Shown here: piece by piece, positions 422 through 32,130 of the stretch
How positions within the stretch are numbered: position 1 is the first letter of the stretch
Layout: the number at the start of each line of letters is the position of its first letter
NCBI GenBank assembly: GCA_037137535.1
Contig: JBAXKC010000001.1
Location: 192,001-256,000 of the forward strand
Source: a bacterium
GTDB taxonomy: Bacteria; Cyanobacteriota; Vampirovibrionia; Gastranaerophilales; JBAXKC01
Direction: 5' to 3'
DNA: 64,000 bases
Made by a program: the position numbers and the translations under genes
The notes under the pieces: generated by a model
Seen by the model: the letters and a program-made list of their open reading frames with translations, nothing else
Told to the model about the DNA's origin: nothing
Database searches by the model: none

Positions 422-453
422 TTAACGCTTCAAGTCAAGACTTGAAGCGTTAA
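422..453. terminator. Bidirectional intrinsic terminator
   Basis: Perfect inverted repeat TTAACGCTTCAAGTC-aa-GACTTGAAGCGTTAA between convergent genes. Confidence 0.8.
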
Positions 454-469
454 AATTAGTTTTTTAAAA

Positions 470-796
470 TTAATCATTGTTTACTTTAGGTTGTTCTTGG
501 TTTCGCTTTGTTCTTAATCCCAAATAATCAAATATAGCATAAGCTGCAACAGCAGCACTTAATCCAGCAACACATTTGCGCAAGATTTGTTTATTTTTAC
601 ATGCTACTTCTTCTATAAATTCAGGGGTTTTAGCAATGGTCTTTTTTACAGAATCATTTAAATCAAGTTTATCTTGAATGGATTGTGTGATTGTCCCGGC
701 AGTAATAATAGCAGCAGAAATAGATTTTGAATTATCCCAAATATCAGATTTAGACTGACTAATTATTGGTTTTGCTCCAAAAGACGGTATATTCAT
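470..796 (-). CDS. Small hypothetical membrane-associated protein (N-terminal SFG motif)
   Basis: 108 aa, GGAGG RBS. Starts MNIPSFG and has two small-residue hydrophobic segments (SISAAIITAGTI; CVAGLSAAVAAYAIF). Confidence 0.7.
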   Translation of the reverse strand: MNIPSFGAKPIISQSKSDIWDNSKSISAAIITAGTITQSIQDKLDLNDSVKKTIAKTPEFIEEVACKNKQILRKCVAGLSAAVAAYAIFDYLGLRTKRNQEQPKVNND

Positions 797-805
797 AAAT
801 GCCTC

Positions 806-1738
806 CTATTTTTTATATTTTTTCAAATCTTCTTTAGTCATTGTTTTGTATTGCAATGAAGGCTCCTCGCACATTGCATGAAAGAAACCTATAAGTGTAG
901 ACCCGGCAGCTTCAGTTACACCAGCAGCTACAGCTGCATTTAGAGCATTACCCGCTCCTGGGAACCAAGTGAAAAGTTTACTAGCAGTTTGAACACCTAC
1001 TGAACTTGCAGTGGTAACAGCAATAGAAGTCATTACTCCAGTAGATATAGGGTCAAGTCCGTAAACAGCAGCAAGTGATAAAGCCATAACTCCAGTAGCA
1101 GCCTGCAATGCTGCCATATCACCACCAGGTGCCTGTGCTAGTGCGGCAGCTATGCCTGCATTTGCAGCACTAGCTGCATGAACAATGCCCCAAGCTCTTT
1201 CGTCTCTTTCTTCTAATGTTAAACCTTTAAAAGAAAGCTTTCCCGTTTTTTTAGATTTTTCTACACCACCCATTCCACATTCGAGAATATTTTTCATTTG
1301 TTCTAATTCTTCTACCTTTTTAGGATCGGTTTCTTTTTTAATTTCTTTATTTAATTCTTTAATCCCTTTTTTGCAAATTCCTTGAATATATTCAGGGTGA
1401 GCCATTAATTCAATACCAATTTTTGTTGGTGGTACATTTTGTTGTAAATCTTGTAATTTCTCAGTTAGCTCTTCTTCTGATAATTCAGGAATTTCTTCCT
1501 TTTTACTCTTAAATGACAGATTTGTAAGACATTGAGCTTTTACAGCATGTCCTGCTTCCGCTGAACATAATAAATTTTTACCAAATGTTAAATTTGGCTT
1601 AACTTCTAGACTATTTTGCTTAGTTTTTTGTAAATCTTGTTTTTTAACCAAGTCTAAATTATTTGATAGGTTGCGGAGTGCGTTAAAATCTTTTAGCATA
1701 CTTTTAAAATTTCCTTTTAATACAATTAAAGTCCGCAT
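806..1738 (-). CDS. DUF697-like domain protein with N-terminal extension (start probably 1699)
   Basis: C-half IVHAASAANAGIAAALAQAPGGDMAALQ...MALSLAAVYG...FPGAGNALNAAVAAGVTEAAG matches the DUF697/YcjF-type pattern as I recall it. Confidence 0.6.
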   Translation of the reverse strand: MRTLIVLKGNFKSMLKDFNALRNLSNNLDLVKKQDLQKTKQNSLEVKPNLTFGKNLLCSAEAGHAVKAQCLTNLSFKSKKEEIPELSEEELTEKLQDLQQNVPPTKIGIELMAHPEYIQGICKKGIKELNKEIKKETDPKKVEELEQMKNILECGMGGVEKSKKTGKLSFKGLTLEERDERAWGIVHAASAANAGIAAALAQAPGGDMAALQAATGVMALSLAAVYGLDPISTGVMTSIAVTTASSVGVQTASKLFTWFPGAGNALNAAVAAGVTEAAGSTLIGFFHAMCEEPSLQYKTMTKEDLKKYKK

Positions 1739-2029: not shown

Positions 2030-2380
2030 TTAATCACCATGCTTATAATCCCATTCACGGTCAAGATAATCTGTTTCACTCTTCACAAGGTCATTTAAGT
2101 ATGATGAAGCTTTTTCAGCAGGAGTATCACACGAACTCAAATAATAAGCTCTAAAATAATCTGCTGCAGGTTGTTTTTCTTTAACTTGAATTCCTGTTTT
2201 CTCTAAAGCAGCTTCAACTCTTTCATCTCGCCTATCAGCTGTTAATAAACTTGTCTTATCAAGTTGATAAGGGTTGCTATCATAATGTTTACCTATTCCA
2301 AGCTCTTCTGATAGATTTGACTTTTGCTCAGGAGTAAGAGGTTTTTTAAAAACAAAATTTGATCCAAAAGTTATATTCAT
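2030..2380 (-). CDS. Hypothetical protein (N-terminal TFG motif)
   Basis: 116 aa, AAGGA RBS, begins MNITFGS. No recognisable domain. Confidence 0.7.
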   Translation of the reverse strand: MNITFGSNFVFKKPLTPEQKSNLSEELGIGKHYDSNPYQLDKTSLLTADRRDERVEAALEKTGIQVKEKQPAADYFRAYYLSSCDTPAEKASSYLNDLVKSETDYLDREWDYKHGD

Positions 2381-30445: not shown

Positions 30446-30835
30446 TTATTTGTTAACTTTAATATCTTTACTTGCTTGAATAGTTGCAAATAAGCCATTT
30501 ATTGACATTAGAAAGCCAAAAGCAATTACACCTACAGCCGCTCCTACAACAGCACCTTTTTTTAAAACACTCGGAAAATCAAGCTTTTTAGCTTGCATCA
30601 ATTTATCAACAAGCTCTTTTCCATATGATTCTATTCTTTCTATAGGTTTATTAGTTTTAATTTGTGATAGAAGTTCATTTTGTCTAAAGCCATCATATGC
30701 AGCTGTTAAAGCACCTGTAGTAGTGCCTATTGCAGTTGATGTCATTAACTCTGTTTGACATGGAAAAAGTTCTTTCTTTTTCTCTTTACTTGATGTAAAG
30801 GCTAAAGGCTGACTAAAATTAACTTTCATCATCAA
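30446..30835 (-). CDS. Small hypothetical membrane-associated protein (AFTS motif)
   Basis: 129 aa; MKVNFSQPLAFTS; hydrophobic TAIGTTTGALTAA and GAVVGAAVGVIAFGF segments. Confidence 0.7.
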   Translation of the reverse strand: MMMKVNFSQPLAFTSSKEKKKELFPCQTELMTSTAIGTTTGALTAAYDGFRQNELLSQIKTNKPIERIESYGKELVDKLMQAKKLDFPSVLKKGAVVGAAVGVIAFGFLMSINGLFATIQASKDIKVNK

Positions 30836-30904: not shown

Positions 30905-32074
30905 TTAATCTTCTTCATGTAAAACTTGCATAATACTTGATACTTTCTCTGCAATACGCGTAGCCGCCTCTTGTTTTTCTTTTGTATTACAAACAACAGG
31001 TATTTTTAATATAGTAATATCATTAGCTATCTTACCCCAATCAATATTAGCGACTTTATCACCAAATTTACATAATTTATCAGCATTTATACTAAGTTTG
31101 CCAGTCCATGTTTTATTTAATACGGTACCAGTATCTTCAAAAGCTTGTCTGAAAATCTCATGTTCTCCATTTCTATAGCTATCTTTTATGCTTCTTCCAA
31201 CAGCTTGTGTTACACCTGCAGCAAGGGTTGCTGTTACAGCTGCACCTGCATAAGGAACCATTGTACCAACATCAATAGCCAAGGATGTATTCGATGCTAG
31301 CCATTGCAATGATTTAACTCCCATATTTGTAGCACTTGTTGCTGCATTTACCCCCATACATGCCCCAACAAGACATTGCATCATTTCACTTTCGCCGGGC
31401 ATGTAAACAGACGCCAAACTTCCTGCCATTAATATCTCATTTAATTGTAGAAAAGGAATATCAGCACCTGGCACTAAATGAAAAAATGTAGCAATTCCTG
31501 CAGCAAAACCAGTATGAAGATGTATTGCACTATTGGCTTCTTCATCCTCAGGATCTTCGCCAAACATCCATTCCCAAACACCTTTAAATTGAACTTCTTT
31601 ATGCTCATGCTCAGAAGAACCTTCGACATTACGTTGTTGCACTCTTAAAGGACTATGTTTCTTATTCGGGACTTGATCTAAGGCAAGCTCTGCCTCAAGA
31701 CTTTTAAGTCCAGCGTTTAAGAATTTATATTCCTCACATTTTCTTTTTTCTTCGGGAACAGAGTCTAAAGCTTTTTTTACAGCTTCTAATCCCAAAACAA
31801 GCTCAGTTTTAGAGATTTTACTGTTTGTACTTTTTAAATTCTTTTTACTAGGGGCGATTTCAATTGAAGTAGGAGTATTTAAACTTCCAAAATTTGTAGT
31901 TGCGTTGTATTTATACATATTTGCATTTTTAATTGCTGCTGCCTCATTATAAGAATACAATTGAATACTATTTTTAATTGCAACAGTATCTTTATTAACA
32001 GACAATTTGTCCTTTTTAAAGTTATCCATATTAGAATTTATTCTTAAAACTTTATTCTCTAATCTTGTTTGCAT
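30905..32074 (-). CDS. DUF697-like domain protein, paralog of 806-1738
   Basis: AIHLHTGFAAGIA...VPGADIPFLQ...MAGSLASVY...VPYAGAAVTATLAAGVTQAVG; ATG at 32074 after a GAGAGGA RBS. Confidence 0.62.
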   Translation of the reverse strand: MQTRLENKVLRINSNMDNFKKDKLSVNKDTVAIKNSIQLYSYNEAAAIKNANMYKYNATTNFGSLNTPTSIEIAPSKKNLKSTNSKISKTELVLGLEAVKKALDSVPEEKRKCEEYKFLNAGLKSLEAELALDQVPNKKHSPLRVQQRNVEGSSEHEHKEVQFKGVWEWMFGEDPEDEEANSAIHLHTGFAAGIATFFHLVPGADIPFLQLNEILMAGSLASVYMPGESEMMQCLVGACMGVNAATSATNMGVKSLQWLASNTSLAIDVGTMVPYAGAAVTATLAAGVTQAVGRSIKDSYRNGEHEIFRQAFEDTGTVLNKTWTGKLSINADKLCKFGDKVANIDWGKIANDITILKIPVVCNTKEKQEAATRIAEKVSSIMQVLHEED

Positions 32075-32130
32075 ATATCCTCTCAAATTTAATTCCACCT
32101 TTTACTTAAATATTATTTAGTAACTTATAT

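Follow-up and report, generated by a model that had tools for sequence, protein, structure and literature searches.

The window analyzed here, a 64,000-nucleotide (nt) stretch of contig JBAXKC010000001.1 (positions 192,001 to 256,000, forward strand; assembly GCA_037137535.1), comes from a bacterium of the order Gastranaerophilales. On its minus strand lie two two-gene cassettes, referred to as copies 1 and 2, in each of which a large gene is followed by a small one (Table 1). The large product combines a variable polar N-terminal part, a conserved helix and a hydrophobic-Ser-Phe-Lys-Gly motif with a C-terminal, predicted four-helix bundle that resembles Pfam family DUF697. The small product carries a short N-terminal motif of the same kind, a weak Gly/Thr/Ala-rich segment, a polar linker, a hydrophobic segment and a basic tail. 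The motif recurs near the N terminus of unrelated proteins throughout the genome, where we refer to it, together with the residues preceding it, as the leader. The cassettes thus represent a conserved orphan pair, through which a superfamily of unstudied domains is connected with a leader that is lineage-wide and unexplained. They appear to be a gene pair of a freshwater, non-photosynthetic cyanobacterial relative that is conserved in its gut-dwelling kin.

The open reading frames (ORFs) of both cassettes are present where the first-pass annotation had drawn them, with one correction at the start of large gene 1. The longest ORF begins at 1738, the start given in that annotation. The ATG at 1699 is the likelier start because the stored gene call (P0001) has 297 amino acids, homologs begin with MLKDF, and the position 1738 lies so close behind the promoter-like -10 element at 1742-1747 that it is probably too early. 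Read on the coding strand, a Shine-Dalgarno-like AAAGGA is found upstream of ATG 1699. The promoter-like site itself is the best match, with 10 of 12 positions, in a consensus scan of 300-2500. A GGAGG Shine-Dalgarno sequence overlaps the stop codon of the large gene, and the gap to the ATG of the small gene is 10 nt. Downstream of the small gene, the terminator-like hairpin would work both ways and serve both small gene 1 and a convergent gene at 3-341. Copy 1 is therefore best described as a compact, predicted two-gene operon with promoter-like and terminator-like sites.

Two metatranscriptomic libraries, X2 and X3, both from the sample that probably yielded the DNA, contain contigs from this operon. 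The X2 contig matches the genome with 0 differences, carries an adapter at 1720 and bridges the junction between the two genes; contigs of X3 span 527-1006 and 1103-1713. Such contigs document presence only, and they neither exclude DNA carry-over nor prove a single transcript. The ends of the X2 contig coincide with the predicted terminator and lie just inside the predicted promoter, which for one sample is a weak hint. The bins 300-447 and 1780-2001 are without cover in X2 and X3 and are covered by the DNA run, an absence that carries no weight.

Copy 2 has the same order with a wider spacing. The longest ORF of its large gene extends to a GTG at 32098 (30905-32098, 397 amino acids) and that of its small gene to 30835 (30446-30835, 129 amino acids). 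VQFKG precedes the DUF697-like domain of large protein 2, and its C-terminal tail is longer. Small protein 2 contains a strong hydrophobic segment, GAVVGAAVGVIAFGFLMSI (hydropathy 2.21), followed by the basic tail. The gap of 70 nt between the two genes contains a GGAG, and the cassette is flanked by hairpins. Both large genes of the window thus have a small same-strand ORF downstream, of 108 amino acids in copy 1 and of 127-129 amino acids in copy 2, as had been noted in the first reading of the sequence.

TABLE 1. Coordinates of the cassette features in the window and of the FlhA-type loci in the source genome.
Feature	Position	Strand	Remarks
Large gene, copy 1	806-1699	minus	297 amino acids from ATG 1699; longest ORF 806-1738, 310 amino acids
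Promoter-like site, sigma-70-type, TTGACA-17-TACATT	1742-1770	minus	upstream of large gene 1; consensus match only
Conserved helix ETDPKK... of large protein 1		minus	after the polar N-terminal part with F motifs, before LSFKG
LSFKG motif of large protein 1	1223-1237	minus	between N-terminal part and DUF697-like domain
DUF697-like core of large protein 1	866-1216	minus	predicted four-helix bundle
Small partner gene, copy 1	470-796	minus	108 amino acids, begins MNIPSFGAK, basic tail
Hydrophobic segment of small protein 1	515-586	minus	residues 71-94; hydropathy 1.59
Intrinsic-terminator-like hairpin	422-453		3' of small gene 1 on the minus strand; 14-pair stem found on both strands
RNA-library contig	449-1720		1293 nt, run X2 record 2; bridges the junction of large and small gene 1
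Large gene, copy 2	30905-32074	minus	389 amino acids from ATG 32074; stored representative P0007, 389 amino acids
Small partner gene, copy 2	30446-30829	minus	127 amino acids, MKVNFSQPLAFTSS...; stored gene call P0154, 127 amino acids
FHIPEP loci of the source genome (G000)	C3:65045-67045, C13:1446-3560, C2:107681-109057, C34:182-1675, C27:25204-26991, C60:3193-4608		

The cassette is not confined to these two loci. The source genome (G000; 2.95 Mb, 81 contigs, 100% complete by marker genes) holds four copies, twice the number counted from the window: among its 6313 ORFs of at least 50 amino acids, four large and four small ORFs match the family profiles and no others do. Every one of the four large paralogs has a small same-strand ORF of 108-140 amino acids 10-70 nt downstream. 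The two large proteins of the window align with E=6e-12 in BLASTP (27% identity, 316 columns), and the conserved blocks quoted in the first-pass annotation lie in their C-terminal halves. A single large protein used as query against a collection of genome contigs found no relative. Among the small proteins, 1 and 3 are homologous (E=5e-13), and the two partners of the window, 1 and 2, show no significant similarity (E=0.80). A quick maximum-likelihood tree of 46 family members does not group the four genome copies in one clade; large protein 1 pairs with P0002 (Shimodaira-Hasegawa-like approximate likelihood ratio test 97) and large protein 3 with P0003 (100). The copies are thus old paralogs and not the product of a recent expansion.

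In its full length the large family is rare and restricted, and the gene pair is conserved in a part of the order Gastranaerophilales. A word-indexed search of 5.8 billion clusters returned five full-length proteins, and the family occurs in 30 of 401 genomes of the order at E<=1e-8 and in a single genome among 202 from families for which sampling was at class level only. Together with the four copies and the recurring gene order, this upholds the earlier description of a lineage-restricted, paralogous two-gene module.

Conservation of the pairing was assessed for 27 family copies, namely the distinct family ORFs in the 23 loci returned by the search of the order plus the four own copies; matches without a locus and fetched loci without a family ORF under the cut-off lie outside this set. 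In 19 of the 27, a same-strand ORF of 70-210 amino acids with a hydrophobic segment within its last 50 residues follows within 100 nt, as compared with 16 of 2429 genes under the same three criteria in the source genome (about 0.5% without the cassettes, which account for 4 of the 16), a contrast that is overstated, given that the criteria were set after seeing the loci and that the genomes are kin. A neighborhood survey had been proposed in the first-pass annotation; the homologs in relatives are indeed followed by a small, hydrophobic-tailed ORF far more often than genes at large, so the outcome named there as refuting the module was not observed. Furthermore, an F/Y-K/T/G motif lies within the first 30 residues of 16 of the 19 downstream ORFs.

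Several of the loci show arrangements of their own. In one genus of the main family of the order (L018, L019, L020, L022, L023, L024, L026), the cassette is syntenic between ilvD and the gene for 5-formyltetrahydrofolate cyclo-ligase. The cluster consists of a divergent leader protein of about 272 amino acids, the DUF697-like gene, the small partner and a third ORF of 128-165 amino acids with an acidic C terminus, sometimes joined by a fourth ORF of 93 amino acids with a leader and a transmembrane (TM) segment, and none of these has a Pfam family. In several other relatives within the order (L012, L031-L038, L040), the DUF697-like domain lies inside open frames of about 700-820 amino acids, and the three long forms examined (L035, L036, L038) have no small partner downstream. 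At a further locus (L011, G003:C181, 765-3386), a leaderless DUF697-like gene of 193 amino acids and an ORF of 205 amino acids with multiple hydrophobic segments lie between fliI and fliJ on the opposite strand; fliI was called here from its type III secretion system ATPase domains.

The likeness of the large protein to DUF697 is real and distant. Large protein 1 matches the Pfam model (PF05128) with E=2.5e-4 and 21.3 bits, below the cut-off of 27.7 bits, so that the assignment made in the first reading stands as a relationship but not as a formal family call. Large protein 2 has no DUF697 match in Pfam. Matches below the cut-off were obtained for five of eight family members (best E=2.1e-5, profile positions 10-139), and in a six-frame search of the genome two of the four copies scored 25.6 and 21.8 bits; the source genome contains no DUF697 domain above threshold. 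The family profile (A1) retrieved 2181 proteins at E<=1e-3 among 1.84 billion representatives, in all cases via the C-terminal domain only. When 56 of these matches were scanned, 27 showed sub-threshold DUF697 in the matched region (best among relatives 27.6 bits), three showed a weak, overlapping match to EcsC (PF12787; 16.9-18.2 bits against a cut-off of 30.4), and two carried dynamin or Era-type GTPase domains. EcsC was not matched by the window's own proteins. Domain scans found no NTPase or GTPase domain in any of the four large proteins, in line with the first-pass annotation, which had seen no GTPase.

Like members of DUF697, the large protein has a helical, Gly/Ala-rich domain of about 120-140 residues. 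It differs in that none of the eight family members reaches the Pfam cut-off, no GTPase is fused or adjacent, and the cassette form adds the long polar N-terminal part with its Phe motifs and the constant small hydrophobic partner gene. Bona fide DUF697 is found in 94 of 201 genomes of the phylum, in its photosynthetic part, in several copies and in proteins of 450-580 amino acids, but it did not turn up in any of 73 genomes from the order's main family. We presume that the long cyanobacterial forms are GTPase fusions, and we take YcjF (UPF0283; TIGR01620) to be a member of Pfam DUF697. None of the eight cassette proteins matched the YcjF-type NCBIfam model at E<=1. Large protein and relatives are thus best regarded as a distant branch of the DUF697 superfamily in a new architecture; the family is not filed as a DUF697 member because it fails the Pfam threshold and lacks an NTPase association.

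Conservation within the large protein centers on the domain and on its boundary. An alignment of eight family sequences (A3) has nine invariant columns, among them S169 and F170 of LSFKG and A65, which belongs to an 'EA..A(I/V)K' segment followed by an F motif; this segment, pointed out in the first reading, is therefore real. The loops of the bundle contain the motifs PG.D and P.GN..N, with invariant or near-invariant Asp, Gly, Pro and Asn residues. AlphaFold2 modeled the C-terminal domain as four long helices from a 72-sequence alignment (predicted local distance difference test (pLDDT) 81, predicted TM-score 0.76), and the full-length protein was modeled poorly (pLDDT 55); Foldseek found nothing for the full-length model and no match at E<=0.001 in the PDB for the C-domain model. 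A wide VIA-align comparison of the C-domain gave a designed helical repeat as its best match (Z 8.9) and dynamin and IniA stalks at about 8.2-8.3, a range that is uninformative for helical bundles. A sequence search of the PDB returned nothing below E=0.3, and the nearest ESM-Atlas clusters include DUF697 clusters with scores below 0.9, which are leads only.

The core of the large protein is very poor in charge. Residues 182-281 of large protein 1 are 4% charged and 58% Ala/Gly/Ser/Thr, and over 100 residues the six copies considered range from 4 to 9% and from 41 to 58%, respectively. Windows of 100 residues with at most 6% charge occur in only 94 of the 2080 proteins of the source genome, and 80 of these 94 also have a classical TM-like segment. 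Membrane embedding of the core is likely but, since none of the large proteins reaches a 19-residue Kyte-Doolittle mean of 1.6, not secure.

The small partner evolves fast, and its N-terminal motif is of the type seen in the large protein. Small partners start with MNIPSFGAK, MKVNFSQ, MNISTFKT or MKINNFKN, and their C-terminal hydrophobic segment reaches a 19-residue Kyte-Doolittle mean of 1.3-2.2. The first-pass description of a two-helix protein with an F motif thus fits well for the C-terminal segment and the basic tail but less well for the first helix, which is weak and exceeds 1.0 in only two of six partners. Partners from the main family of the order show both hydrophobic segments, with less distance between them.

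The F motif that the first reading had noticed in the cassette proteins is present in them but is not specific to them: it belongs to a leader found across the genome. The first 40 residues of proteins contain 32 instances of [IVLAT][STNAKPQ]F[KT]G as compared with 4.8±2.0 in per-protein shuffles (10 shuffles); at any position there are 87 as compared with 45.4±5.5 (2718 ORF-proteins). Fifty-one proteins have the motif start below residue 80, of which 46 were kept as the leader set and five obvious false positives were dropped (example loci are L041-L080 as well as C3:78611-80377, C5:7495-12021 and C20:48067-49077 of G000). Their common pattern is M-x-I/L-N, an acid-poor stretch of 3-75 residues rich in Asn, Gln, Lys, Ser and Thr, and N-N-[VIL]-[SA]-F-[KT]-G. 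No Pfam family was assigned to 32 of the 40 leader proteins scanned; the other eight comprise an FtsH-like AAA+M41 protein, a pentapeptide protein, a 5'-nucleotidase, a 1508-amino-acid alpha-amylase-domain protein, two nucleotidyltransferases, a cytidine deaminase and a DSP-phosphatase. The leader therefore sits on unrelated proteins, and these are without Sec signals. Likewise, the N-terminal 30 residues of 12 cassette-family proteins contain no 19-residue window of at least 1.0 and hence no Sec-type h-region. The leader was not found described in the literature searched, and the literature on secretion or effectors of Gastranaerophilales, judged by title or start of the abstract, held nothing on this subject.

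In the cassette proteins the leader takes two forms. In the large proteins the domain is preceded by LSFKG, VQFKG, LSFLG or INFKG, so the earlier statement that the domain begins right after FKG holds for both copies of the window, and nearly all close relatives carry the motif at this position. What precedes the domain is about 170 residues long and includes the conserved helix and two or three copies of the motif. In the small partners the leader can be reduced to six residues, with a degenerate motif (FGA, FSQ, FKT). Two metagenome relatives of the large protein (P0019 and P0020) have a second Ser-Phe-Lys-Gly after the DUF697-like domain and before a further C-terminal region; the motif can therefore mark internal module boundaries. 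A DNA-level explanation, in which 'FKG' would reflect a Shine-Dalgarno-like TTTAAAGG, was discarded: 12 of 46 leaders read F-T-G with ACN codons, the Ser codons are AGT or TCN, and most of the 46 genes have a Shine-Dalgarno-like site before the start codon, upstream of the motif. The variable synonymous Ser codons and the upstream Shine-Dalgarno sites show that the motif is selected at the protein level.

Some leader-bearing genes deserve mention individually. Cassette 3 (G000 C15:34786-38364; L002, L062-L064) heads a same-strand run of five leader-bearing genes, namely large 3, small 3, a cytidine-deaminase-domain protein and two tandem paralogs of about 200 amino acids. The leader of the deaminase-domain protein precedes a twin-arginine-like RREFL stretch, and the tandem paralogs have near-identical leaders of 75 residues. 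The FtsH-like AAA and peptidase M41 protein (G000 C1:110540-112276, L041) has a polar leader of 56 residues that ends with LPFKG and stands where N-terminal membrane helices would be expected. Directly upstream of cassette 1, an orphan ORF of 116 amino acids (window 2030-2380, minus strand) starts with the leader-like MNITFGSNFVFKKP; it has its own Shine-Dalgarno sequence and terminator-like hairpin, and an RNA-library contig covers 2035-2293. Besides this orphan, the neighbors of copy 1 are an ORF of 516 amino acids, purH-like by eye, and a HEAT-repeat-like ORF; among these neighbors the orphan alone was scanned against Pfam.

Taken together, we tentatively favor, at a little less than an even chance, the view that the cassette encodes a leader-tagged, GTPase-less membrane module of the DUF697 type with a co-assembling small partner. 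Both products would be sent to, or processed for, the same place by the shared non-Sec leader of the lineage, in which the leader may act as a sorting signal or as a cleavage site. The four-helix bundle and the hydrophobic segment of the partner would then sit together in a membrane as a hetero-oligomeric module, and the small partner might take the place of the fused or adjacent NTPase of canonical DUF697 proteins.

Several results weigh against this view, in addition to the after-the-fact criteria of the pairing survey and the limited meaning of the RNA contigs noted above. The highest 19-residue Kyte-Doolittle value of the large protein is 1.55, below the classical 1.6; hence the bundle could be soluble or peripherally bound. 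Eight of the 27 family copies, forms of about 700 amino acids included, are without a small partner of the kind described. Partners of different subfamilies are not detectably related in a profile comparison (hhalign A4 vs. A6, probability 0.5%, E=0.12), and the partner profile retrieves five proteins in 5.8 billion, none outside the six aligned; what identifies them as the same partner is thus where they lie and how they are built. Over six pairs, the divergence of the large protein shows no significant correlation with that of the small one (Spearman 0.23, p=0.40), and only the comparison of pair 1 with pair 3 stands out. Among the candidates searched for machinery that reads the leader (Prp, VirB4 and proximity to FlhA loci), none was identified.

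The most serious competitor, though we consider it rather unlikely, is an ordinary inner-membrane pair with a housekeeping or stress function, similar to YcjF and without export, in which the Phe motif would be a docking site for a cytoplasmic partner on a disordered tail. In E. coli, the ycjX-ycjF pair encodes a canonical DUF697 protein. One study describes this pair as often adjacent to the psp membrane-stress operons, with ycjX under a sigma-32 promoter (PMC3041696). The existence of long, canonical DUF697 proteins in photosynthetic members of the phylum, the stable chromosomal synteny with ilvD and the cyclo-ligase gene in one genus, the sigma-70-like promoter and the finding that no secretion machinery is linked to the cassette would all fit a resident function of this type. 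Against this stand the other carriers of the leader. Enzymes of the 5'-nucleotidase and alpha-amylase classes normally work outside the cytoplasm and have Sec signals, whereas the 5'-nucleotidase and the alpha-amylase-domain protein of this genome have the leader and no Sec signal. Moreover, the motif lies exactly at domain boundaries and, in P0019 and P0020, also after the domain, a placement that suits a mark for processing or sorting better than a docking site.

The first-pass annotation had proposed a secreted, membrane-inserting effector with a partner or immunity protein. A large gene with a small membrane ORF downstream that evolves fast, the presence of several diverged copies in one genome, Gly/Ala-rich helices that could enter a membrane, and a leader shared with effector-like proteins (the DSP-phosphatase, the cytidine deaminase, the two nucleotidyltransferases and the pentapeptide protein) are indeed features that a toxin and its cognate immunity or helper protein might show. 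Nevertheless, the proposal was not borne out and we regard it as improbable. Polymorphic toxins share the downstream small gene with the cassette, but they combine a conserved N-terminal trafficking part with a variable C-terminal toxin, the reverse of what is observed here. The sub-threshold Pfam matches point to DUF697, and some relatives of the domain are fused to a GTPase. The leader is present on the small protein as well, where an immunity protein that stays in the producing cell would have no use for it. Old paralogs at syntenic loci do not suggest mobility; tblastn matched nothing in phages and plasmids, and the sole matches in PADLOC (Cmr5 on small protein 4, E=0.0011) and in PHROGs (E=0.0095) are at chance level. 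What did gain from the analysis, though only indirectly, is the idea of export, because the leader proved to be genome-wide.

Slightly less probable still is that a flagellar-type type III export apparatus takes the cassette products as its substrates, so that they become inserted at the envelope or beyond it, with the leader as a variant of the two-part signal of early subunits. The resemblance lies in the bipartite build, with M-x-I/L-N, an acid-poor polar linker of variable length and a Ser-Phe-Lys-Gly core. The genome also has six FHIPEP (FlhA/SctV) matches, two of them full-length FlhA and four cytoplasmic-domain-only paralogs, and the second full-length FlhA belongs to a second rod/FliE/FliF/FliH/FliI-type cluster on contig C13. 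The DUF697-like gene pair between fliI and fliJ in a relative (G003) points in the same direction. However, the motif recognized by the flagellar gate on early type III substrates is FxxxPhi, and position +4 after Phe in the 46 leaders is most often K, N, L, Q or I, without a hydrophobic preference. Linkers can be as short as 3-6 residues, and the proximity of leader genes to the six FlhA-type loci stays within chance (P=0.14 to 0.89). The cassette promoter is sigma-70-like, and no sigma-28 motif was seen by eye, with no scan aimed at sigma-28.

Two further routes were considered for the leader and set aside. Cleavage of a leader by a Prp-type protease is known for ribosomal protein L27; the complete source genome has no match to PF04327, and the control was positive in three reference genomes. 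A link to type IV secretion was rejected for now, as the genome contains no VirB4.

A bolder version of the favored view, which we offer as a long shot, would place the cassettes at the end of an undescribed route by which Gastranaerophilales export or process proteins in dependence on the leader, as the part that inserts into membranes. The Ser-Phe-Lys-Gly tag would serve for recognition of both proteins and perhaps as a cleavage site; a flagellar-type gate or one of the four orphan paralogs of the FlhA cytoplasmic domain might handle them, and they would be delivered together into the envelope or a target membrane, where the bundle and its hairpin partner might form a pore, anchor or translocon for the approximately 45 other tagged proteins.

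DUF697 is a large family without known function, and in the papers found to mention it the term appears in no title or abstract and once per text. The stripped-down form described here, with no GTPase, a constant small partner, four diverged copies and cover by RNA contigs, offers a simple two-protein test system for it. The gene pair also ties the DUF697-like domain to the leader and provides two small, co-encoded test substrates for the question of whether the leader serves sorting or cleavage. Should the cassette turn out to be only a lineage-specific membrane pair, several hundred 'hypothetical' genes of Gastranaerophilales from gut and freshwater could still be annotated better.

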